Below, piece by piece: positions 5,611 through 44,471 of a stretch of 64,000 nt of DNA. The DNA lies in NCBI GenBank assembly GCA_016432285.1, contig CP066682.1:439072-503071 (forward strand). Direction: 5' to 3'. Position numbers and translations under genes: made by a program. This DNA comes from Candidatus Kaiserbacteria bacterium. Its GTDB lineage: Bacteria; Patescibacteriota; Minisyncoccia; Phycocordibacterales; UBA2100. How positions within the stretch are numbered: position 1 is the first letter of the stretch; each line of letters opens with the position of its first letter. Under the pieces are notes generated by a model. That model did no database searches. It was not told the DNA's origin and saw nothing but the letters and a program-made list of their open reading frames with translations.

Positions 5611-6795
5611 CTAGATCGAAGTGCGGCTCACTCGGTACACCGCGCCCGCACGATCGTCCGTGATATAGACGGTGCCGCCCGGTTCGGCGAGCACATCGAC
5701 CGGGCGGCCGATCACGCTGCCTCCCGCCGTAAAACCAGTGAGGAAATCCTGCGGATCGCCCTCCGGTTTCCCCTGCGCGTCGAGCGGGAAGCGCACGACC
5801 TTGTAGCCCGTCGGGACGCTTCTGTTCCATGAGCCGTGATAGGCGACGAGCGCGTCGTACCAGTATTCTTCGGGCCAGCCCTCTTCAGGCACGAATGCAA
5901 TCCCCAGTGGCGCTGAGTGTGCGGGGACGTCGATCATGCTCGGCGAAGGATCCGCAGCAGGCGCACCCGATCCAAAGCTCTCGTCGACTGTATTTTTCCC
6001 GTAGAACCACGGCCAGCCGTACCAGCCGCCTTCGCGAAGGACGTTGATCTCGTCGGGCGGCGTGTCGTCGCCAAGAAGGTCGCGTCCCATGTCGGTGCCC
6101 CAGATCTCGCCGGAAACCGGATGGATTTGCATGAAAACGGTATTACGCAGCCCGGTGGCAAAGGGGCTCATCGCTCCGGTCGCGAGGTCGATCGCCTGCA
6201 CGCTCGCGCGGCGTGAGTCGCTCTCTTCGCACACATTGCAGGAGGAGCCGATCGACACCAGAAGGCGCTTCCCGTCGGGGTGCGGCAAGAGCGTGCGCGT
6301 GAAGTGGCCGCCTCCCGCAGGAAGCGTGGCGAGAGTACGCTGCTCCGACGCCGTGCGGGTGGCAGGGTCGAAACGGTACGCGTTCACCGCATTTTCTTCC
6401 GCAACGTACATGGTGCAGTTGGCGTCGTTTTCATCGCAGTCGACGAAGAGTCCGTGCGGCCGCTGGAGACCCTCGAGCACCGTCTCGCTTTTTTCTGCCA
6501 CCCAATCGCCATCCTCGTCGAGGAGAGCGACGATCTTTCCCTCGCTCGTGAGGCTCGCATAAAACGCCGCGCCGGGCGCGCGCGTGAGGACACGGATACC
6601 GGGCAGATTGTCGGCATAGCGGTAGGCGGCAAATCCCTCCGGCACAGAAAAAGGAAGCGGCTCTCCCGCGGGCGGCAGTGGTGGCGCGGGCCGCACAAGC
6701 GGCAAGAGGCCGCTCAAGAATCCGCGAAGCGGCGAGGCGTACGCGATGAGCCCCAGAATGAGGACGCCGATAAGTATGATGGCGGCTTTTTTCAT
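5611..6795 (-). CDS. PQQ-dependent sugar (glucose/sorbosone) dehydrogenase-like beta-propeller, secreted
   Basis: Signal peptide MKKAAIILIGVLILGLIAYA. Motifs GWYGWPWFYG, GDPQDFLTGF, TDDRAGAVYRV are typical of the YliI/sGDH family. Confidence 0.6.
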   Translation of the reverse strand: MKKAAIILIGVLILGLIAYASPLRGFLSGLLPLVRPAPPLPPAGEPLPFSVPEGFAAYRYADNLPGIRVLTRAPGAAFYASLTSEGKIVALLDEDGDWVAEKSETVLEGLQRPHGLFVDCDENDANCTMYVAEENAVNAYRFDPATRTASEQRTLATLPAGGGHFTRTLLPHPDGKRLLVSIGSSCNVCEESDSRRASVQAIDLATGAMSPFATGLRNTVFMQIHPVSGEIWGTDMGRDLLGDDTPPDEINVLREGGWYGWPWFYGKNTVDESFGSGAPAADPSPSMIDVPAHSAPLGIAFVPEEGWPEEYWYDALVAYHGSWNRSVPTGYKVVRFPLDAQGKPEGDPQDFLTGFTAGGSVIGRPVDVLAEPGGTVYITDDRAGAVYRVSRTSI

Positions 6796-11381: not shown

Positions 11382-11657
11382 CCGGGGTAACTCAATGGTA
11401 GAGTGGCTCCCTGTCGAGTAGGCAGCTTTTGATCGGAAGGTCAATCGAAAATTTCGGGATAACGGTGAACCCCTCGCCTCGGCAGGGCAACACCGTGGGA
11501 ACCCTAAGAGATAGGCCGTTATGCGGCAATCTCGCGGGGGCGCCGTAGAGACTAGATACCGAAGCACCGAGATCCGGTGATGATATAGTCCACGCCTTTA
11601 AGAAATTAGAGGATTCGTGTAAGGAGTAAGTTGTGGGTTCGAGTCCCACCCCCGGAG
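11382..11657 (+). tRNA. tRNA interrupted in the anticodon loop by a group I intron; most likely tRNA-Asn(GUU), alternatively tRNA-Thr(UGU)
   Basis: 5' exon 11382-11415: TCCGGGG acceptor, D-arm ACTC/AATGGTA/GAGT, anticodon stem GCTCC, loop CUGU. 3' exon 11620-11657: UAA + GGAGT stem + T-arm GTGGG-TTCGAGT-CCCAC + acceptor CCCCGGA + G73. U1-A72 and G73 match Asn. Exons total 72 nt. Confidence 0.7.
11416..11619 (+). ncRNA. group I self-splicing intron (~204 nt) inside the tRNA anticodon loop
   Basis: Conserved group I core elements R-like GTAGAGACTAGA and S-like GATGATATAGTCC. The 5' exon ends in U, which can pair as G-U with GCAG (the proposed internal guide sequence). The intron ends in G. Size is like Azoarcus-type tRNA introns. 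Confidence 0.65.
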
Positions 11658-11670
11658 CCTGAAGCAGTTG

Positions 11671-11696
11671 GACCCCGACGCGCGAGCGTTGGGGTC
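11671..11696 (+). terminator. hairpin GACCCCGACG-cgcgag-CGTTGGGGTC downstream of the tRNA (weak, no clear T-run)
   Basis: 10-bp stem with one mismatch. Confidence 0.3.
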
Positions 11697-11885
11697 TTAC
11701 TGATTCACCCCGGGGCGGGACTCGAAAGGCGGAGCGCCGAGCATCGGCGCGAGCCGGGGTCGAGAAACATTTTTTGAAAAAAATGTATTCGTGACCGAGT
11801 CCCACCCCGAGAGTGATTTTGCTCGAGCGGGTGGGGCAGATCATCCAACATTGACGGGCATAATACAGAGGTTCATACTTTCCTC

Positions 11886-16427: not shown

Positions 16428-16574
16428 CCCCATCGGGACGAGCGTCGGTCAGGGCCGAGCTCGTCCCGCGGGGCTGGCGGACGCCGTGTCGGGCGATTAC
16501 GTCCGCGACCGCTAGAGAGACTACTTCGAGCACGCGTTTTGTCAAACACGCCCGGGCGGCTACAATACGCGGGC

Positions 16575-17591
16575 ATGGCATTTTCTTTCGCGCCCAAATT
16601 GGGGATCGATCTCGGCACGACAACGGTTCTCGTTTTTGTGCCGGGCCGCGGCATCGTCCTCAATGAGCCATCGGTCGTCGCTGTCTCGCAGACCGACAAC
16701 AAGATCCTTGCAGTGGGCAACGAAGCCAAGGAGATGGTCGGCCGCACGCCCGACGAAATCATCGCGTACCGGCCCATGAAAGACGGCGTGATCGCCGATT
16801 ACCGCGTGACGGAGGCGATGCTTCGCTACTACATCCGCAAATCGCTCGGCAAGTGGAATCTTTTCAAGCCGGAAGTCATGGTCTCGGTGCCGGCGGGCGT
16901 TACCTCGACCGAACGGCGCGCCGTGGTGGAAGCGGCCACAAAAGCCGGAGCGCGCGAAGCGTACGTGGTGAAGGAGCCGATTCTCGCCGCGATCGGCGCC
17001 GGGATTCCAATCCACGAGGCGCGCGGACACATGATTGTCGACATCGGGGGCGGCACCAGCGACGTGGCCGTGATCTCTCTCGGCGGCATCGTCGCCTCGA
17101 CCTCGGTGAAGTGCGCGGGCAACGCCATGGACCATGCGATCGCCGACTATTTGAAAAAGAATTTCAATCTCGCGGTCGGCGACAAGATGGCCGAACAAAT
17201 CAAGATCCACATCGGCTCCGCCGTCCCCATGGATGAGGAGCTCACGATGACGGTGAAGGGGCGCGATTACCTCACTGGGCTGCCGCGCTCAATCGAGCTT
17301 TCGACTAATGAGGTGGTCCGCGCGATAGGCAGGGAGCTGCGGACGATGGTGAATGCGATGAAAGACGTCTTGCAAGACACACCGCCCGAGCTCGCGGCCG
17401 ACATCATCGACAACGGCATCATTATGACGGGCGGTTCCTCGCTCCTGCGAAATCTCGCCGAGCTCGTCTTTCGGCGCACCGGCGTGAAAGCGCGGGTGGC
17501 CAAAGACGCGCCTTTTTGCGTGGCCAAAGGCACGGGCGAGGCTCTGAAGCACCTCGAAGCATACAAAAAAGCGATCATCACGAAGCGCTGA
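16575..17591 (+). CDS. mreB: rod shape-determining protein MreB (paralog 1)
   Basis: Actin-fold phosphate-1 motif GIDLGTTT. DIGGGTSD. IIMTGGSSLL. TACAAT 8 nt upstream of the ATG at 16575. Confidence 0.85.
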   Translation: MAFSFAPKLGIDLGTTTVLVFVPGRGIVLNEPSVVAVSQTDNKILAVGNEAKEMVGRTPDEIIAYRPMKDGVIADYRVTEAMLRYYIRKSLGKWNLFKPEVMVSVPAGVTSTERRAVVEAATKAGAREAYVVKEPILAAIGAGIPIHEARGHMIVDIGGGTSDVAVISLGGIVASTSVKCAGNAMDHAIADYLKKNFNLAVGDKMAEQIKIHIGSAVPMDEELTMTVKGRDYLTGLPRSIELSTNEVVRAIGRELRTMVNAMKDVLQDTPPELAADIIDNGIIMTGGSSLLRNLAELVFRRTGVKARVAKDAPFCVAKGTGEALKHLEAYKKAIITKR

Positions 17592-21849: not shown

Positions 21850-23130
21850 ATGCGCCAATCGCAGCTCTTCACCAAGACACGCCGCGAGGCACCGAAAGAC
21901 GAAGTGGCGAAAAATGCCCAGCTCCTGATTCGCGGAGGGTTCATCAGTAAAGAGATGGCAGGAGTATACAATTTTCTACCACTCGGTCTTCGAGTGTTCG
22001 AAAAGATCGTGAACGTCATACGAGAGGAGATGAATGCTATCGGTGGTCAAGAGATTTTAATGAGCAGTTTGCAAAGGCGCGAGCTCTGGGAAAAGACCAA
22101 TCGCTGGAACGACGAGGTTGTTGATAATTGGTTTAAGACAGAACTGAAAGATGGCAGCATCGTAGGATTGGGCTTCACTCACGAAGAACCGATTACGAAT
22201 ATGATGGAGCAATTCATTCCGTCATATCAAAACCTCCCCACTTACGTTTACCAGTTTCAAACTAAATTCCGAAATGAGGAGCGGGCAAAAAACGGCCTTC
22301 TGAGAACACGGGAATTCGTGATGAAGGATCTCTATTCTTTTTCTAAAAATGAAACGGAACACGTTGATTTTTACGAAAAGGCCAAAGATGCATACAAGCG
22401 CATTTTTAATCGTCTTGGAATCGGGAATAACACGTATCTTACGTTCGCTTCCGGTGGGTCATTTAGTAAATTCAGTCACGAATTCCAAACGATTTGTGAT
22501 GCAGGAGAAGACGTTATTTATATTCACAAAGATGATTACGGTAAGGGCTTAGAAATGCACCCACACCATGCCGCAATCAATAAGGAAATCTATACGGAAG
22601 ATCTGAAAAAGGATCTTGGACTCGAAGGAAGTTTTATTGAAAAGAAGGTAGTCGAGGTTGGGAATATCTTTACGCTAGGAACTCGCTTCCCAGAAGCGCT
22701 CCTCTGCCGATTTAAGGACGAGCAAGGTAAAGAGAATTACCCGTTCATGGGCTCCTACGGCATCGGCCCGGCGCGGCTGATGGGGACGATCGCCGAAGTG
22801 CTCTCGGACGACCGCGGGCTCGTGTGGCCCGCGGAGATCGCGCCCTTTGCGGTGCATCTCATCGCGATCACGGGCGGCAACGCCGACGTGGCGGCCGAAG
22901 CCGAGCGCTACTTCGAGATGCTGAAGGAGAATCACATCGAAGTGCTCTTCGACGACCGCGACGTGCGGGCGGGCGAGAAATTTGCCGATTCGGATCTTTT
23001 GGGAATCCCGACGAGGCTCGTCGTTTCGGAAAAGACGATGGCCGAGGGCGGTGTGGAAATGGTGAACCGCAAGGACAAGGCGGCGACGATCGTGGCCGAG
23101 AGCGACGTAATCGGACGCCTTTTGAAATAA
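21850..23130 (+). CDS. proS: proline--tRNA ligase (short, archaeal/eukaryote-like class II form)
   Basis: Class II motifs (FRNEER..GLLRTREF; GSYGIG). Anticodon-binding C-terminal domain. ORF extends upstream to 21628, but MRQSQLFTKT at 21850 matches homolog N-termini and the promoter position. Confidence 0.85.
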   Translation: MRQSQLFTKTRREAPKDEVAKNAQLLIRGGFISKEMAGVYNFLPLGLRVFEKIVNVIREEMNAIGGQEILMSSLQRRELWEKTNRWNDEVVDNWFKTELKDGSIVGLGFTHEEPITNMMEQFIPSYQNLPTYVYQFQTKFRNEERAKNGLLRTREFVMKDLYSFSKNETEHVDFYEKAKDAYKRIFNRLGIGNNTYLTFASGGSFSKFSHEFQTICDAGEDVIYIHKDDYGKGLEMHPHHAAINKEIYTEDLKKDLGLEGSFIEKKVVEVGNIFTLGTRFPEALLCRFKDEQGKENYPFMGSYGIGPARLMGTIAEVLSDDRGLVWPAEIAPFAVHLIAITGGNADVAAEAERYFEMLKENHIEVLFDDRDVRAGEKFADSDLLGIPTRLVVSEKTMAEGGVEMVNRKDKAATIVAESDVIGRLLK

Positions 23131-23132
23131 GT

Positions 23133-24203
23133 ATGCGGCGCTTTCGGGAATGGAAAGAAAGAATCCTGGGGTGGTTCTCCAACGACATCGGTATCGATCT
23201 CGGCACCGCCAACACGCTCGTGTACGTCAAAGGTCGCGGCATTGTCATCAATGAGCCGTCGATCGTGGCGATGAATCAAAAGACTGGGCAGGTAGTGGCG
23301 GTGGGGCAGCAAGCCAAGGACATGCTTGGCCGCACGCCGGCGCACATCGTGGCCGTGCAGCCGGTGATCGACGGCGTAATTTCGGACTTTGAAGTTACCT
23401 CCGAGATGCTCTCGTATCTCATCAACAAGGCGCAGGAAGGACACACCAAACTCCTGGGGCCGCGCGTAGCGATCGGCGTGCCTTCGGGCATCACTTCTGT
23501 GGAAGTGCGGGCGGTGCGTGACGCCGCGCGCGCCGCAGGCGCGCGCGAGGTGCACATCATCGAAGAGCCGCTCGCAGCGGCGATCGGCATCGAGCTCCCG
23601 GTGCACGAGCCGCGCGGACACATGATAATCGACATCGGCGGCGGCACCACCGACGTGGGCGTGGTCTCGCTCGGCGGCCTCGTCAACTCGCGCAACATCC
23701 GCATCGCGGGCGATCGGTTCAACGCCGACATCGTCGCTCACACGCGCAACGAATTTAAAATCCTCATCGGCGAAAAAACCTCGGAAGAGATCAAAATGCA
23801 GCTCGCCAACGTGGCTCCCGGCCGCGACCGACTCGAGACCTTGGCGCGTGGCCGCGATTTGGTGACTGGTCTCCCACGCGAGATCGTCGTATCGGATCAG
23901 GACGTCCGCAACGCGATCGGACACTCGGTGGAGGAGCTCGTGGAATCAATCAAGGAAGTGCTCGAAACCACGCCGCCCGAGCTTTTGGCCGACATCATGC
24001 AGCGCGGCATCTATCTCGCGGGCGGCGGGGCGCTGATCCGCGGTCTTCCGGAATTTCTGACCGCGGCGCTCGGCGTGCCGGTCGTGGTGGCGCCGGATCC
24101 GCTCACAGCCGTCGTACGCGGCACGAGCGTTATCCTCGAGGATCTCAATCTGTATCGCGAAGCGCTCCTGAAAAATGATGACGAATTTGTGCCGACAGAG
24201 TAA
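23133..24203 (+). CDS. mreB: rod shape-determining protein MreB (paralog 2)
   Basis: GIDLGTANT, DIGGGTTD, IYLAGGGALI. Start at MRRFREW immediately after the proS stop. Confidence 0.8.
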   Translation: MRRFREWKERILGWFSNDIGIDLGTANTLVYVKGRGIVINEPSIVAMNQKTGQVVAVGQQAKDMLGRTPAHIVAVQPVIDGVISDFEVTSEMLSYLINKAQEGHTKLLGPRVAIGVPSGITSVEVRAVRDAARAAGAREVHIIEEPLAAAIGIELPVHEPRGHMIIDIGGGTTDVGVVSLGGLVNSRNIRIAGDRFNADIVAHTRNEFKILIGEKTSEEIKMQLANVAPGRDRLETLARGRDLVTGLPREIVVSDQDVRNAIGHSVEELVESIKEVLETTPPELLADIMQRGIYLAGGGALIRGLPEFLTAALGVPVVVAPDPLTAVVRGTSVILEDLNLYREALLKNDDEFVPTE

Positions 24204-40782: not shown

Positions 40783-42093
40783 ATGGATTATTTTCGATCA
40801 ATGCTCGTGCAGCTGCTCACGTGGGAAGCGCGAATCGTGCTCTCGCGGCGCAAGCCGAAAATTATCGCGATTACGGGAAGCGTCGGGAAGACAAGCGGCA
40901 AAGACGCGATCTACGCGGCGCTCTCCGACGCATATTCAGTGCGTCGGAGCGAAAAGAGCTACAACAGCGAGTTTGGTGTGCCGCTCACGGTGCTCGGGCT
41001 CGAAAATGCATGGCGCGATCCGTGGCGGTGGATCCTCAACGTAGTTCGCGGACTCGTGCTGATCTTCTCTCGATCTCCTTATCCCGAGTGGCTCATTCTC
41101 GAAGTGGGCGCTGATCGGCCGGGCGACATCTCGCGAATTGCGCGCTGGCTGCGGCCCGACATCGCCGTTATCACCGGTGTGCCGGAGATTCCCGCTCATG
41201 TAGAGTATTTCGATTCTCCGGATCAACTCGCGCGCGAAAAGCGGGAGCTCGCGCGCTACGTAAAGCACGGCGGCAAACTGGTCTTGAACGGCGACGACTC
41301 CCGCATGGTACAGCTCTGCGCCGACTTTCGCGGCATGACGCTGAAGTACGGACTCGAAGCGAGCAATGACTTCCGTGCCGACGATATCGAGATCGCATAC
41401 GAAGAGAAGAAGCCGACCGGCATGCGATTCAGGCTTGAGCGCCGCGCCGATCTCCCCACGCTGGCAGCCGCCGTGCTCCCAATCGCCATCCGGGGAGCGC
41501 TCGGGAGACCCCGTGTGTACGCGGCACTCGCAGCGCTCGCGGTGGGAGAGGCGGCGGGCGTTGATCAGATCTCGGTGGGGCGCGCGTTGGAGAGTTGGGA
41601 GCCGCCGCCGGGAAGAATGCGAATACTGCCGGGCGTGAATGGTTCGGTGATCATCGACGACACCTACAATTCTTCGCCGGTGGCCGCGCTTGCGGCTCTC
41701 GACACACTGAAAGCACTGAAGTGCAAACGCCGCATCGCGCTCCTTGGAGACATGTTGGAGCTCGGTCGCTATGCCTCGGAGGCGCATCGCAATGTCGGCC
41801 GCAGGGCCGCGAAGGTCGTCGACCTTTTGTGGACCGTCGGCTTTCGCTCGCGGGCCAGTGGCGAAGCAGCACTCGACGAAAAGATGTCGGAGAGCGACAT
41901 TCGTGAATATGAACAGACGGAATCGAGACGGGCAGGGGAGGAGTTGCGAGCACTCCTCAAGCCGGGCGACGTGGTGCTCGTGAAAGGCTCGCAGTCGATG
42001 CGCATGGAAAAGGCTGTGCAGGAGCTGCTTGCTGAGCCGAGCCGCGCAGGGGAACTCCTCGTCCGCCAGGATTCGGAATGGAAAAAGAGGTAG
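40783..42093 (+). CDS. murF: UDP-N-acetylmuramoyl-tripeptide--D-alanyl-D-alanine ligase
   Basis: Mur ligase P-loop ITGSVGKTS. Central and C-terminal Mur domains. Follows ftsI. Confidence 0.8.
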   Translation: MDYFRSMLVQLLTWEARIVLSRRKPKIIAITGSVGKTSGKDAIYAALSDAYSVRRSEKSYNSEFGVPLTVLGLENAWRDPWRWILNVVRGLVLIFSRSPYPEWLILEVGADRPGDISRIARWLRPDIAVITGVPEIPAHVEYFDSPDQLAREKRELARYVKHGGKLVLNGDDSRMVQLCADFRGMTLKYGLEASNDFRADDIEIAYEEKKPTGMRFRLERRADLPTLAAAVLPIAIRGALGRPRVYAALAALAVGEAAGVDQISVGRALESWEPPPGRMRILPGVNGSVIIDDTYNSSPVAALAALDTLKALKCKRRIALLGDMLELGRYASEAHRNVGRRAAKVVDLLWTVGFRSRASGEAALDEKMSESDIREYEQTESRRAGEELRALLKPGDVVLVKGSQSMRMEKAVQELLAEPSRAGELLVRQDSEWKKR

Positions 42094-42127
42094 GTTTTTG
42101 TTATCATCTGCACGTTTGGTCCTGTCC

Positions 42128-42180
42128 TCTATCGGCTCGAACGTGACCTTCTCAAGGCTAAAGCCGGGGTGAGAAGCGAG
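42128..42180 (+). pseudogene. degenerate 5' two-thirds of a tRNA-Glu-like gene (no matching 3' acceptor strand)
   Basis: GGTCCTGTCCTCTATCGGCTCGAACGTGACCTTCTCAAGGCTAAAGCCGGGGT aligns with tRNA-Glu 42306-42357, then diverges into repeat sequence. Confidence 0.45.
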
Positions 42181-42205
42181 CTCGCGAGCTTCGCAAGGCC
42201 GCAGG

Positions 42206-42275
42206 CGCGACGGCGCCGAGGCGGGGTCGCGGAATTCGCGAGCACGCGAATATCCGTGACCGATTCCTTGGAATC
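42206..42275 (+). repeat. repeat family copy 1: CGAGGCGGGGTCGCGG - palindromic insert - ATCCGTGACCGATTCC - tRNA-T-arm-like tail
   Basis: Shares both core blocks with 42468-42549 and (reverse complement) with 32896-32935. Confidence 0.6.
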
Positions 42276-42305
42276 GAACCCAACATATTTTATACTCGCA
42301 GCGAT

Positions 42306-42377
42306 GGCCCTATCGTCTATCGGCTAGGACGTGACCTTCTCAAGGTCAAGAGCGGGGTTCGATTCCCCGTAGGGTCA
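42306..42377 (+). tRNA. tRNA-Glu(CUC)
   Basis: Acceptor GGCCCTA/TAGGGTC. Anticodon stem TGACC/GGTCA. Loop UUCUCAA. T-arm CGGGG-TTCGATT-CCCCG. Confidence 0.75.
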
Positions 42378-42459
42378 TGAATACCAAAAGTTCGCAGCGC
42401 CGCTGCGGCTTTTTTGGTATTCGCGGGTTCCATGCGGGGAATCGAAAGACGGAGGCGGG

Positions 42460-42549
42460 GTCCCCGCTCGCGGGGAGCCGAGTCGGGGTCGCGGAAATTT
42501 TGCGTAGTAAAATTATCCGTGACCGATTCCCCGTAGGGTCACAAAGAGA
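42460..42549 (+). repeat. repeat family copy 2, ending in a duplicate of the tRNA-Glu 3' end (GATTCCCCGTAGGGTCA)
   Basis: GGAGGCGGGGTCC...GAGTCGGGGTCGCGG - AAATTTTgcgtagtAAAATT - ATCCGTGACCGATTCC - CCGTAGGGTCA. Confidence 0.6.
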
Positions 42550-42791
42550 TGAAAAAGCAAACTGCTTTGCTTTTCCATACACTTTGTGAGGCCGGAGCGA
42601 TGTCGCATCAGCAGATGTGAACGTGAGGCGGGGTCGGCGACCGAGGCGAGCGACGGCGAGCCGAGAGTTGTGGACCACGTGGACATTCAGGCGAGCACTG
42701 CGGACGCTCGCTTGCGGGGAGCCGAGGCGGGCGTATCATTCCACCGCCGCGGGCATTCGCTCGTGAGCATGCATCAACACGGAGTTGTGAG

Positions 42792-42986
42792 ATGAAAAAG
42801 ACGCTCTGGAATGCAGTCGGCTTCGCAATCGGCCTCAAGGGCGATCCGGTTCTCGCGCGGCGCTTCCGCAACCAAACCAACGCGACCGCCATCGAATACG
42901 GCCTCATCGCGGCGGGTATTTCGGTCGCCATCATTGCTGTCGTGCAGGGGCTCGGCGGCAAAGTGGCCAGCTTGTTCGGCAACTAA
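42792..42986 (+). CDS. flp: Flp/Fap family type IVb (Tad) pilin
   Basis: Conserved TAIEYGLIAAGISVAIIAVV motif after a Gly-containing leader. 64 aa. Confidence 0.6.
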   Translation: MKKTLWNAVGFAIGLKGDPVLARRFRNQTNATAIEYGLIAAGISVAIIAVVQGLGGKVASLFGN

Positions 42987-43106
42987 ATCGCCGCGGCGCC
43001 CCCACATGTTATCGCCGCCACTCAACAGGAAAGTCGTTGGGGGGCGGCTTTTCTTTTCGGCACTCGACCGATGACGGGTTCACGACGAACGGTATAGAAT
43101 GAGCAG

Positions 43107-43517
43107 ATGGACCGCGATGAGCGAGGCGGGATTTCTGCGGAACACGCGGCATTCATGACACATATGCGCTGGTACATGCGCTACATCGCGGTCGCTCTCT
43201 CGATCTCGATGCTCGCCGCCCTTTTGGCCGCAGTTCTCACGTGGCGCATCTATCAGGATCGCCTGGAGCCCGCAGTGCAGGATATGCAGACAGCCTTGCA
43301 GGACGTAAAGGCGCTCACGGCGCAAACATCCGCGCTTCTTGAGGAAGCAAAACAGACGATGGTCGAGGTTCGCAAAGCCGCAAGCGCGGCCGCTCCGGTA
43401 CTTCAGGAGGCGCAGGAGACGATGCAGGCAGTTGAGCAAACGACGGGCCGGGTGGAGCGTGCGGCCGCGCCGTTCGAACTGCTCCAACTCATCCCCGTGG
43501 TCAATTGGTTCTTCTGA
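43107..43517 (+). CDS. hypothetical membrane-anchored coiled-coil protein
   Basis: One TM (YIAVALSISMLAALLAAVL) then a Q/A/E-rich helical region. Confidence 0.4.
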   Translation: MDRDERGGISAEHAAFMTHMRWYMRYIAVALSISMLAALLAAVLTWRIYQDRLEPAVQDMQTALQDVKALTAQTSALLEEAKQTMVEVRKAASAAAPVLQEAQETMQAVEQTTGRVERAAAPFELLQLIPVVNWFF

Positions 43518-43736
43518 AGCCGCCCGCTCGAGCCCGTGGCGCACTCGGTCGGAATCCGTTCACGGATTGACTGGGTGGCTAAAAGATTGCACAATCGGCG
43601 CCAGAGCATAGCCCGTCCGCCACAGCAGAAAGCGACTCCACAGGGGGCAATTTTCTGCTGTGGCGAAGCGCATTCGGCGCAAGCTTCCAGCTTGACCCGC
43701 TACCCGCAAGGAGTAGCCGCTCGGTAGGAGAAACCT

Positions 43737-44471
43737 ATGAGCAAACCAACGCTGACGCAGGCACTCAGCCTGCTTCACCGCGTCGACGACAAGAAGTTGT
43801 CGTTGAAGCGTCTCGAAGAGCATTTCGATGCAGGTCTGATTTCCGACCTGCTCGACGTCGATCCCCGCACGGTGGTTCGCGAAGAGTTCCGGCGAGTGAT
43901 TGGGCACCCGGCCGCGCTCCCAGCATCGTCTGGAGGGCCGTTGCCCGAACCGACTATCGTCGAGCTCGGTGAGTTCGAAGTAAATTACGACGAGACCATC
44001 GCCTCCAAGCTCGCGGGCAACGCCGATCCGGGGCGAATCAATCCGCACAACGAGATGTGGGCGCCCGTCGAGAAGTTTGCCGACCCACGGGAAGGCAAGA
44101 AGCGTTTCAAGGCCTCCGCCATCAACTTCGGCGAACCTATGCTCGATCAAGACGTCGAGCGGTGGTGTGAGATCAATAAAAAAGTCCAGGCCGCGCCGAA
44201 GGAGGGCATCGACATTGCACTTGCGTCGCCGCGCCCGAAGCTCGACAACGTGATGCCGCTCGTTCTCAGTGGTAAGCCCTCTGTGAGCGGGAGCGGATGT
44301 CGCTCCGTGCTGTTCTTCTGTCTTGAGGGCGAGGCGCGCGATCTTGGCGTCATCTTGCTGGCCCCAACCCAGCCGTGGATCGGGCACCAATGGCTGCTCG
44401 TCCTCGAGGAGATACCCGAGGGTCCCGTCCATGAAGAAGTGCCCGAAGGTCTCGTCTTCCGCGCGTTCTGA
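43737..44471 (+). CDS. hypothetical protein (244 aa)
   Basis: ORF with correct codon bias. Acidic C-terminus. No family recognised. Confidence 0.45.
   Translation: MSKPTLTQALSLLHRVDDKKLSLKRLEEHFDAGLISDLLDVDPRTVVREEFRRVIGHPAALPASSGGPLPEPTIVELGEFEVNYDETIASKLAGNADPGRINPHNEMWAPVEKFADPREGKKRFKASAINFGEPMLDQDVERWCEINKKVQAAPKEGIDIALASPRPKLDNVMPLVLSGKPSVSGSGCRSVLFFCLEGEARDLGVILLAPTQPWIGHQWLLVLEEIPEGPVHEEVPEGLVFRAF

Follow-up and report, generated by a model that had tools for sequence, protein, structure and literature searches.

A repeat field beside a tRNA-Glu gene of a Kaiserbacteria genome is a pile-up of small structured cassettes, probably of a mobile family

Patescibacteria (CPR) are tiny-celled bacteria with genomes of roughly 1 Mb, which are regarded as poor in mobile DNA. 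Several described systems invite comparison with the short repeats that we report here behind their tRNA genes. Williams is said to have sorted integrases in 2002 into sublocation classes, among them those of tRNA-gene elements with a crossover in the T loop. MITEs of the IS200/IS605 group (PATEs) and the REP/REPIN sequences are moved in trans, as single strands, by HUH Y1 transposases. Integron attC and the attP(+) of the CTX phage, used by XerCD, are folded single-strand recombination sites. Rickettsia palindromic elements (RPEs), likewise short and mobile, can occupy protein genes without breaking the reading frame.

The repeats described here were studied in a 64-kb window (the whole stretch of DNA analysed) and at further loci, designated by L numbers. 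They are copies of a modular cassette with the canonical order tRNA(1-55) / S - hp1 - S' - AAAG - P2 - GGG - P3..CGTGAC / S, where slashes mark the unit boundaries. S is the 3' part of the tRNA from C56 of the T loop, S' is the reverse complement of S, and hp1 is a hairpin between the two, often a terminator. The conserved core comprises AAAG-N-CGGAG, hairpin P2, GAG-N'-CGGGG, and hairpin P3 ending in CGTGAC, with N paired to N'; a second exact copy of S closes the cassette. Units measure about 100-165 nt and keep a uniform internal order across more than 70 copies. Because S lies inside the unit, the unit supplies a replacement tRNA 3' end and often also a terminator; the displaced original S stays behind as a direct repeat. 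At other loci these repeats are typically 18-27 nt long (range 10-58 nt) and always start at C56, and the left boundary is fixed after T55 in the context GGTT/CGA. Among 150 CPR tRNAs, 72 have neither S' nor the direct repeat and the remainder carry both together with a core, which indicates that S' and the repeat are not native to tRNA genes. At sites where the proximal and distal S differ, S' forms 9 Watson-Crick pairs with the proximal copy versus 2 Watson-Crick and 5 G:U pairs with the distal one. The idea that S' is a primer-binding site was rejected: S' has no complement of CCA and usually none of the outer acceptor strand.

Each described system shares part of this design. As in T-loop tRNA-integrating elements, the direct repeat reproduces the tRNA from the T loop to its 3' end, the tRNA is made whole by sequence on the element side, and repeated use of one tRNA yields stacked arrays; a tRNA-3' direct repeat flanking an insert, the mark of integrase islands, is found here too (18 nt, exact, at tRNA-Glu; 42 nt with 1 mismatch at tRNA-Arg). 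Unlike those elements, the cassette is only 100-165 nt long, has no integrase in or near it, carries the inverted target copy S' and a covarying two-hairpin core, and occupies a large share of a genome's tRNAs. With PATEs and REP/REPIN it has in common that it is small, protein-less, hairpin-rich, strand-specific, and inserted beside a short target; the AAAG purine stretch 5' of the hairpin foot presumably parallels the left guide of IS608. Hairpins that may correspond to the subterminal ones of such MITEs lie at both ends, with S-hp1-S' or a left hairpin on one side and P3 on the other, and with a plus-strand G:U bias. IS200/IS605 elements insert 3' of a fixed tetra- or pentanucleotide and are not known to duplicate their target, whereas the cassette has a long target-derived stem (S:S') and a direct repeat of 10-58 nt, retained in most copies despite the fixed left boundary. 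Like attC and the CTX attP(+), the cassette forms imperfect hairpins of a specific strand that would imitate or partner a double-stranded target, keeps structure over sequence, and conserves unpaired or bulged bases; its target, however, is the tRNA T loop and not attI or dif, and its core, judged by eye, is without R and L boxes. We know of no IntI linked to it. The likeness to RPEs lies in one in-frame protein-gene insertion (the DUF1801 copy of L185); there is no sequence relation, and RPEs have neither tRNA targeting nor a target-derived stem. Finally, the predicted closing helix P1, in which S' pairs with the distal S, copies the acceptor and T stem of the neighbouring tRNA and leaves a free discriminator end, recalling the tRNA-like domain of tmRNA, YrlA, and mascRNA. 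The cassette differs in lacking a T loop, since S' zips the loop up and P2 and P3 take its place, and it has no Rfam match.

The repeat field at tRNA-Glu is a pile-up of at least 4 copies (A-D) of this one cassette. Its approximately 700 bp hold a decayed 5' part of tRNA-Glu, an intact tRNA-Glu(CUC), and copies A-D; three further copies lie in the window, each 3' of another tRNA. Scores refer to covariance models of the unit (R1) and of the core (R2).

42079-42107, plus strand: promoter-like site TGGAAA-17-TATCAT, 5' of the decayed tRNA-Glu copy; overlaps the murF stop
42117-42170, plus: pseudo-tRNA-Glu, 81% identical over 54 nt to 42305-42358
42171-42194, plus: left hairpin of unit A, GAGAAGC..GCTTCGC, replacing S-hp1-S'; same layout in L113
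42195-42260, plus: core of unit A, AAGG-C-CGCAG, P2, GAG-G-CGGGG, P3, ..CGTGAC (R2 72.4 bits, E 6e-17; R1 58.3 bits)
42261-42267, plus: right junction of unit A, CGATTCC, a T-loop-derived, truncated S
42268-42296, plus: promoter-like site of tRNA-Glu, TTGGAA-17-TATACT, a module kept in L113 and L185
42305-42378, plus: intact tRNA-Glu(CUC) (ARAGORN; Rfam 55 bits)
42379-42422, plus: hp1 of unit B, a long palindrome with an intrinsic-terminator core stem (42392-42408) and T run
42430-42446, plus: block I (S') of unit B, CCATGCGGGGAATCGAA, from inverted-repeat comparison
42445-42523, plus: core of unit B, AAAG-A-CGGAG, P2 (42454-42479), GAG-T-CGGGG, P3 (42488-42523) ending in CGTGAC (R2 59.3 bits)
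42524-42541, plus: distal S of unit B, 18 nt identical to the 3' part of tRNA-Glu, C56 through discriminator
42539-42589, plus: proximal hairpin of unit C, TCACAAAG, hairpin 42549-42578 (AAGCAAACTGCTTTGCTT type), CTTTGTGA; homologous in L138
42588-42680, plus: core of unit C, subtype 1b, GGCCGGAG, P2, GAGGCGGGGTCGGCGACC, ..CGAGCCGAGAGTTGTGGAC (R2 17.4 bits, E 0.011, weak)
42690-42745, plus: putative remnant of unit D, a P2-like hairpin GGCGAGC..GCTCGC, then GCCGAGGCGGG-CG-TATC-ATTCC, with P3 deleted and a diverged, tRNA-3'-like tail
42792-42986, plus: flp, Flp/Fap pilin (PF04964, 49 bits), a neighbour outside the element
11659-11815, plus: unit behind an intron-containing tRNA (11384-11658) (R1 78.8 bits)
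32870-33015, minus: unit behind tRNA-Arg(CCG) (R1 62.6 bits)
33539-33693, plus: diverged unit behind tRNA-Ala(GGC) (R1 28.4 bits, E 4e-5)

The initial annotation had recognized a repeat field around tRNA-Glu, and all the items that it listed are there, some shifted by about 10 nt. Its degenerate 5' tRNA copy exists, at 42117-42170 instead of 42128-42180; it consists of positions 1-54 only, with D and anticodon stems broken and its last bases (..CCGGGGT) in the T loop. The first repeat copy (42171-42267), the intact tRNA, the terminator-like hairpin, and the second copy (42430-42523) with its exact duplicate of the tRNA 3' end (the proximal S, 42360-42377) stand as described, as does the pilin gene at 42792. 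Of two additional motifs, one is exact (GAGGCGGGGTCG, 42625-42636) and the other only degenerate (GAGGCGGGCG, 42724-42733). The palindromic inserts that were seen to differ between constant blocks correspond to the variable top of P3. CGGGG does not change where the neighbouring tRNA has a different T stem. The resemblance to a T arm with a variable hairpin is therefore accidental for tRNA-Glu, and pairing of CGGGG with the T stem (a "T arm with an intron") was rejected. Two segments are reverse complements of tRNA parts: GGAATCGAACCC (42270-42281), inside the tRNA-Glu promoter-like site, matches the T arm exactly, and S' of unit B matches the T loop, the 3' strand of the T stem, and part of the acceptor strand. 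Both motifs are far commoner than chance predicts: GAGGCGGGGTC with up to 1 mismatch occurs 11 times against 1.9 expected, and TATCCGTGACCGATTCC with up to 3 mismatches 4 times against 0.17 expected, counts that were never attained in shuffles. Similar matches to GAGGCGGGGTC at 34286, 49302, 52895, and 57166 are chance occurrences inside genes. In a tRNA covariance search of the field only 42305-42378 scores, the pseudo-tRNA 5' part and units A-D giving no match even at E<=10.

The field lies directly upstream of flp, and short-read contigs break at its repeats; a long regulatory leader for the pilin or an assembly artefact could therefore be imagined, and both had been raised before. We consider this pair of explanations highly improbable. 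Behind many other tRNAs the units are followed by unrelated genes, and the L138 homologue of unit C is without flp, so that a leader is not supported and flp is probably a bystander. Misassembly, envisaged as a collapse of tRNA copies, is unlikely: more than 70 loci, each assembled independently, show this architecture again, and the related Kaiserbacteria-type loci L113 and L138 share parts of the arrangement at tRNA-Glu. Two short-read contigs from Logan match the window with 100% identity (for L209, by blastn) but break at the repeated 20-mer, one stopping at 42218 and the other starting at 42474; 42218-42474 thus rests on a single assembly. No strain variants were found via exact-protein contigs.

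Altogether, 5 of the 8 tRNA genes in the window have a unit. Core model R2 scores the other window units at 60.1 bits (Asn), 49.3 bits (Arg), and 28.2 bits (Ala). The direct repeat of the tRNA-Arg unit (42 nt, 1 mismatch) extends 20 nt beyond the tRNA end, and the junction of the tRNA-Ala(GGC) unit is at the acceptor end (CCACA) instead of the T loop. The tops of P2 and P3 are very different among five window copies, and no window copy is therefore demonstrably recent.

Base pairing in the cassette is strand-specific and strongly covarying. For unit B with its flanks (42424-42544; R1 78.8 bits), the predicted minimum-free-energy structure is a three-way junction, with an RNA fold of -61.3 kcal/mol and z -5.8. 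The covariance modelling suggested earlier gave 73 matches, and double changes occur in 34 of 38 pairs; paired cells amount to 86.5%, compared with 65.5% in shuffles and 35-43% in slid controls. At the middle pair of P2a, for instance, CG is found 35 times, AU 17, GC 14, and an unpaired state once. On the plus strand, the ratio of G:U to A:C is 8:2 in P2b and 11:2 in P3. Junction purines are conserved, P3 has a bulged A and a conserved G:U (carried by 68 of 73 copies), about half of the copies have a tandem G.A variant (GGAYGAGAAAG), and some have an extra hairpin exactly between the anti-acceptor and anti-T-stem segments, a tRNA-like layout. The folded molecule may be RNA or single-stranded DNA.

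All these features suit a structured noncoding RNA that benefits the host, read through from the tRNA promoter, whose P1 would mimic the acceptor/T-stem minihelix of the same tRNA. It might serve as substrate or decoy for RNase P, the CCA-adding enzyme, a synthetase, or a T-loop nuclease, or as a cis-acting processing signal. The conserved purines, tandem G.A variants, and G:U fit a functional RNA as well as a mobile cassette, and two further observations point the same way: the tRNA-Arg unit lies upstream of the host terminator, which predicts co-transcription with tRNA-Arg, and unit C is 85% identical to its L138 homologue over 98 nt although MurF is only 56% identical, which looks like constraint and not selfish decay. 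(Subtype 1b is also present in L013, L196, and L201.) Nevertheless, we hold a host RNA to be unlikely. A canonical terminator, hp1 of unit B, stands ahead of the core; units are patchy at orthologous tRNAs; copies are decayed, truncated, arrayed in tandem, or placed within a coding gene; A-type copies and L160 keep only the proximal hairpin, with no distal P1; and several unrelated core types follow a common S / S' logic. The earlier proposal of tRNA-like structured RNAs was thus half right: it anticipated the covarying, strand-specific fold and the tRNA-copying helix.

Distribution points to a non-autonomous mobile DNA element. Comparison with relatives, as had been proposed, covered 38 loci with the orthologous tRNA-Glu(CUC) beside murF: most are empty and about 15 (about 40%) are filled, with type-1 or other cores. 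L113 has the upstream A-type unit and pseudo-tRNA; L138 has the second unit after the tRNA 3' copy, and the gene beyond its unit C homologue is a different one, encoded on the opposite strand; of the arrangement, L185 shows just a B-type unit and the tRNA-Glu promoter module. Tandem arrays occur at L007, L061, and L113. Cores take no account of isotype, with mean identities of 0.659 within and 0.653 between isotypes, and near-identical ones sit on different tRNAs: Val(TAC)/Ser(CGA) 94%, Arg(GCG)/Glu(CTC) 90%, and Arg(GCG)/Leu(GAG) 88% over 98 nt. Decayed and truncated copies occur alongside complete units. In L185, a 90-nt core (R2 53 bits) is inserted in frame in a DUF1801 ORF at a T-arm-like target, TGGGGT/CCGACGATT; without it, the Pfam score is 50.4 instead of 41.3 bits and the domain is contiguous again. 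The field is thus best explained, at a probability of roughly 60%, by a family of mobile, non-autonomous DNA cassettes that is specific to Patescibacteria (CPR) and sited at the T loop and 3' end of tRNA genes, and of which at least four copies have accumulated here. Mobility is read from distribution, since the loci compared showed no linked enzyme, no excised form, no circle junction, and no empty and filled sites that were otherwise nearly identical. It counts against the mobile cassette that the model gives no account of how S and S' are jointly re-specified at a new tRNA.

Scars of a tRNA-targeting mobile element had been the closest of the earlier readings, and targeting of tRNAs survives from it; scars of large elements do not, given complete 100-165-nt units and decayed copies. 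On such an account, the repeats would be attL/attR, left behind after the loss of prophages or islands that an integrase had inserted by crossover in the T loop, and the core would be a leftover attP arm. Direct repeats from T loop to 3' end are typical of T-loop-integrating elements, and L033 has a 2.4-kb insert between its direct repeats. We judge this origin very unlikely: more than 70 copies have a consistent length and identical internal order, covarying hairpins are not known as a feature of attP arms, no integrase was found in any locus, the L033 insert included, and no copy was found on viral contigs, where all 8 scan matches were chance matches in coding DNA.

A pattern scan gave 120 matches, of which 55 are real copies, almost all in Patescibacteria MAGs; in 39 of these 55 a tRNA of unrestricted isotype lies directly upstream on the same strand. 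Together with the covariance matches, more than 70 copies are known behind tRNAs of nearly all isotypes. Searches against Rfam 15 gave no family match at E<=10 in 41000-44000, none besides tRNA at gathering score in the whole window, and nothing but tRNAs at E<=1 in 8 other loci, whose units are of type 1, 2, or 3; weak mascRNA matches, below threshold, all fall on true tRNA genes (the window tRNA-Glu and tRNAs of three other loci). We found no description of the cassette in the literature, and the family is apparently undescribed. The units are too small for an ORF. Pfam searches of 40 window ORFs and clustering of ORFs over 59 unit-bearing loci gave housekeeping genes only: neither the window ORFs, nor the recurrent ORF families, nor the L033 insert include a recombinase or integrase, and the sequences examined (64 kb of this genome and the loci) hold no Y1 HUH transposase, TnpA, or RAYT.

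How might such a cassette move? We propose a folded single strand as the active form, which might be lagging-strand DNA or else a transcript. S' could pair with either S copy, such that the junction 5' of C56 would be presented at both unit ends. A trans-acting enzyme, possibly of the tyrosine-recombinase or HUH type, would break and join at this junction, excising one unit and restoring the tRNA; the reverse reaction into a T-loop-like site (GGGKT/CGA) would insert a unit and duplicate S. Where the left hairpin does not match the target, the gene would be disrupted, as may have happened with unit A in the pseudo-tRNA-Glu and with the DUF1801 copy. Repeated insertion, unequal crossing-over, and decay would then produce the A-B-C-D stack beside flp.

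The same boundaries could be drawn at the RNA level: a transcript, cut by itself or by an enzyme 5' of CGAnUCC at both S, would release a unit-length, possibly circular RNA that returns to DNA or is reverse-spliced. Identical sequence context at both boundaries, head-to-tail tandem arrays, and a three-way junction that sets the boundary exactly at the P3/P1 junction would all agree with this. Yet we rate such a unit as slightly less credible even than prophage scars: hammerhead, twister, twister-sister, pistol, hatchet, HDV-like, and hairpin ribozymes have no Rfam match in the window region or the 8 loci, no reverse transcriptase was seen, many units contain a terminator, and group II introns are reported to be absent from Patescibacteria (PMC13011429).

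An improbable extension of the mobile cassette is a self-targeting element, in which S' would be a programmable guide defining both its own ends and the T-loop site, and the core would be either catalytic (a small ribozyme of a new class, which would cut and join 5' of C56) or the handle of a guide-dependent recombinase. If true, it would represent a new kind of nucleic-acid-guided DNA/RNA insertion system confined to the CPR, and a catalytic or guide-dependent core would be of interest as a tool.

Whatever its mechanism, the family adds a large body of unannotated repeats, which break short-read assemblies and yield spurious ORFs and pseudo-tRNA signals. Its copies can disrupt a tRNA gene or rebuild it, protein genes are not exempt, and for the cassette we found no described counterpart of its combination of a replacement tRNA 3' end, a terminator, an inverted target copy, and a covarying core. 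It offers a tractable case of small structured elements choosing conserved RNA genes as safe havens.

The tRNA in front of the unit at 11659-11815 merits a separate remark. It spans 11384-11658 and contains a candidate group I intron in the anticodon loop, at tRNA position 35/36 (RF00028, 34.6 bits, E 3.8e-7, below the gathering score of 50), and the flanking exon halves read as a tRNA; group I introns of this class in tRNA have been described (PMC13011429).

The field around tRNA-Glu(CUC) at 42100-42790 is best explained as a group of at least four units (A to D) of a family of non-autonomous mobile DNA cassettes, which reside at the T loop or 3' end of tRNA genes in Patescibacteria. A unit is ~100-165 nt long and encodes no protein. 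The items that the initial annotation had listed for this field are all present, with small shifts in coordinates:

42117-42170: degenerate 5' copy of tRNA-Glu, a 54-nt match to the intact gene at 81% identity, ending in the T loop
42171-42260: unit A (repeat copy 1, 42171-42267), breaking a former tRNA-Glu gene exactly within the T loop
42305-42378: intact tRNA-Glu(CUC)
42379-42422: palindrome of the terminator-like hairpin; its core (42392-42408) with a T run is a canonical intrinsic terminator
42360/42379-42541: unit B, canonical, with repeat copy 2 (42430-42523) and then an exact 18-nt duplicate (42524-42541) of the tRNA-Glu 3' end (42360-42377)
42539-42680: unit C, subtype 1b, ending ..GAGAGTTGTRG in place of ..CGTGAC
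42625 and 42724: extra motif copies, exact and degenerate, respectively
about 42690-42745: unit D, a remnant with hairpin P3 deleted
42792-42986: flp, a genuine Flp/Fap pilin gene (PF04964, 49 bits)

Motifs common to the copies far exceed chance expectation (11 observed against 1.9 expected; 4 against 0.17). The same element lies behind two further tRNAs of the window, one split by an intron (11384-11658) and a minus-strand tRNA-Arg(CCG), and comparison of the three copies yields a modular plan. Read 3' from tRNA position 55, a unit consists of S, the 3' part of the tRNA itself from T-loop position C56 onward; a hairpin that varies between copies, hp1; S' (block I), which is complementary to the T loop and T-stem 3' strand, often also to the acceptor 3' strand; the type-1 core, AAAG-N-CGGAG, hairpin P2, GAG-N'-CGGGG and hairpin P3; and a second S, which abuts P3 with no spacer. 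Block I varies exactly with its tRNA (GGGGAATCGAA, CAGGAATCGAA, GGGACTCGAA), and in unit C it is CTTTGTGA, complementary to TCACAAAG, with which the preceding S copy ends. P3 has GUCG/CGUGAC at its base, varies at the top, and bulges out one A. The direct repeat always starts at C56; its far end is mostly the tRNA 3' end and sometimes lies beyond, giving a length of 42 nt at tRNA-Arg and of up to 58 nt elsewhere. A small conserved hairpin, GCAAG..AACTGCTT..CTTGC with loop CUGC, occurs within or next to block I, often precisely where the anti-acceptor segment meets the anti-T-stem segment (window 42549-42578, and many loci: L011, L022, L026, L057, L061, L062, L074, L075, L097, L100, L108, and L112).

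Eleven copies of 106 nt that align without gaps served to build a covariance model of the type-1 unit (R1). It detects five copies in the window (42424-42544, 11704-11816, 32876-32984 on the minus strand, 42172-42281, and, with a lower score, 33572-33693 behind tRNA-Ala(GGC)) and 73 copies from 60 sources overall; E-values of R1 and of the core model R2 are rough. In the 73-copy alignment, 86.5% of cells are paired, against 65.5% in column shuffles and 35-43% with partners slid; the alignment was fitted to R1 and so favors pairing, a bias that the slid controls also carry. Both sides change in 34 of 38 pairs, and the N:N' pair is CG in 35 copies, AU in 17, GC in 14, and unpaired in 1. Folding is strand-specific: G:U pairs are more frequent than A:C on the tRNA-sense strand (8:2 in P2b, 11:2 in P3), one conserved G:U is kept in 68/73 copies, and the minus strand folds more poorly. 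Unit B is predicted to form a three-way junction as RNA (-61.3 kcal/mol, z -5.8) and, as single-stranded DNA including the proximal S, a long S-hp1-S' hairpin plus P3 (z -6.7). By sequence, the folded molecule may be either RNA or single-stranded DNA. An RNA replicon or ribozyme is less likely than a DNA cassette. Among viral contigs, none of 8 pattern matches was real.

The pattern scan covered 185,579 species genomes and gave at least 120 loci. Among the matches listed, 55 are real copies and the remainder are chance matches in GC-rich coding DNA. These copies come almost entirely from Patescibacteria-type MAGs (labeled Saccharibacteria, Paceibacterota, Moranii-, Taylor-, Kaiser-, Wolfe-, Lloyd-, and Peribacteria, WWE3, and 'Patescibacteria group'). 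For 39 of these 55 copies, ARAGORN places the end of a same-strand tRNA 48-130 nt before the core (227 nt at one locus); among the isotypes are Leu, Arg, Ser, Val, Asp, Lys, Gly, Met, Ala, Tyr, Pro, and Glu. No Rfam 15 family matches, even at permissive thresholds, and we found no description of the element in the open-access full-text literature.

Several observations argue for mobility. S' and the repeat are not native to tRNA genes: of the 150 tRNAs at the CPR (Patescibacteria) loci analyzed, 72 lack both, 61 lie within 300 nt of a type-1 core, and 17 show S' and/or an S repeat with no type-1 core, those read carrying other cores. The tRNA-Glu(CUC) beside murF is syntenic in 38/80 relatives, where most sites are empty, five hold type-1 units, and about ten hold diverged type-1 units, other types, or remnants. 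Head-to-tail arrays occur at L007, L061, and L113, with some copies internally deleted. Core similarity is independent of the tRNA, with mean identities of 0.659 within and 0.653 between isotypes, and near-identical cores are found across tRNAs: Val(TAC)/Ser(CGA) at 94%, Arg(GCG)/Glu(CTC) at 90%, and Arg(GCG)/Leu(GAG) at 88% over 98 nt, a pair that also shares an unusual extension of P2. The cross-isotype similarity could alternatively stem from patchy gene conversion between conserved blocks of the core. In metagenome contig Ga0207952_1000219 (L185, 5966-6055), a 90-nt type-1 core (R2 53.1 bits) sits in frame within a DUF1801 gene at the T-arm-like target TGGGGT|CCGACGATT; without its 30 codons, the Pfam score is 50.4 bits (profile 1-84) instead of 41.3 (20-84), and the domain is contiguous again. 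Near units, in the window and in unit-bearing loci, there is no recombinase, transposase, or reverse transcriptase gene, which indicates that the units are non-autonomous; scars of a conventional integrase are a less likely origin.

Both unit ends share the context N|CGAnUCC, and S' is complementary to either S. We propose that the unit would act as a folded single strand, with S' presenting the junction 5' of C56. Cleavage and rejoining at the two S copies would free a unit and regenerate the tRNA; run backwards at a T-loop-like site, the reaction would add a unit and leave S duplicated. The enzyme would act in trans. A need for a left-side hairpin, with selection for a live tRNA, would explain why that hairpin is composed of the tRNA 3' part, terminator, and complement. 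The scheme does not account for S and S' changing jointly when a core reaches a new tRNA. Patescibacteria are reported to be without group II introns (PMC13011429), making a retro-mechanism less likely.

In unit A, a short hairpin followed by TTCGCAAGG replaces S-hp1-S'. The in-gene copy of L185 has the same left end, and L113, a Kaiserbacteria MAG locus, repeats the arrangement, pseudo-tRNA included. We read unit A and its pseudo-tRNA as the result of an insertion with a left hairpin that fails to reconstitute the tRNA; alternatively, unit A may be an older canonical unit with decayed S-hp1-S'. The functional tRNA-Glu that follows has a separate promoter-like site, TTGGAA-17-TATACT. Within this site lies GGAATCGAACCC, which matches the T arm exactly in reverse complement, and the site is conserved in L113 and L185.

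Unit C is 85% identical over 98 nt (42580-42677) to its counterpart in L138, although the MurF proteins of the two genomes are only 56% identical and the neighboring unit B is unalignable. Such conservation is ill-explained by mere decay and could reflect constraint or recent transfer. It also favors a host function as tRNA-like RNA, as do the conservation of purines at the junction, the tandem G.A variant found in half of the copies, an additional hairpin where the D and anticodon arms would lie, and co-transcription at tRNA-Arg; this function is less probable than a mobile element, though likelier than the other rivals. Unit occupancy is not universal even in this genome, since the Val, Pro, Pro, Ala tRNA cluster at 28222-28642 has no unit. 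The suggestion of a regulatory leader for the pilin loses ground, as homologous units in L138 precede a different gene on the opposite strand; flp is a bystander.

Misassembly, raised in the initial annotation as a collapse of tRNA gene copies, is also less likely. Two independent Logan short-read contigs share window genes (L209, 100% identical by blastn; L210, encoding an identical MurF). One stops at 42218 and the other starts at 42474, both at repeated GCCGAG[G/T]CGGGGTCGCGGAA, indicating that the unit family fragments short-read assemblies; 42218-42474 is present in the window assembly only.

Other tRNAs of these genomes bear cassettes that follow the S-hairpin-S'-core-S logic but differ in their cores, forming with type 1 a wider superfamily. 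S is joined within T-loop positions 55-58 in all types, and types 2, 3, and 1b are absent from Rfam 15. Further core variants also occur.

Type 1b: L013, L138, L196, L201
Type 2: ..GAA-RCCYGATTG..CAATCRGGGTACTG, UGUAA-loop hairpin, then S; L169, L067, L093, L163, L196, L201
Type 3: ..GAA-AGACTTTTCC..GGAAAAGTACCTG, hairpin, then S; L062, L114, L199

At L033 (Paceibacterota JBAZUA010000005.1, 5080-7700), the unit's repeat partner lies 2.5 kb upstream at tRNA-Ala(UGC), with a repeat of at least 45 nt including the tRNA terminator. The small ORFs in the intervening 2.4 kb, for a membrane protein of 183 aa and a Cys-rich protein of 110 aa, include no integrase, suggesting that cargo may be captured between units. 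At L093 (6341-6720), a tRNA (6497-6569, probably Lys by eye) is flanked on both sides by oppositely oriented units, each adjoining GGGTGCA. On one strand this sequence is the 3' acceptor end; on the other it corresponds to the 5' acceptor end in reverse complement.

The tRNA at 11384-11658 (+) is split in the anticodon loop by a ~200-nt intron at position 35/36 (..GCTCC CTGT | intron | TAA GGAGT..) and, from its exons, is probably tRNA-Asn(GUU). ARAGORN and Rfam at gathering score both miss this tRNA; Intron_gpI, likewise missed at gathering score, matches 11403-11612 (34.6 bits, E 3.8e-7). The intron would fit the described class of group I introns in Patescibacteria tRNA-Asn/Asp (PMC13011429). 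The window also encodes two full-length MreB/Mbl paralogues (16539-17591 and 22824-24203; 442 and 435 bits), adjoining mreC and a PBP2-type transpeptidase.
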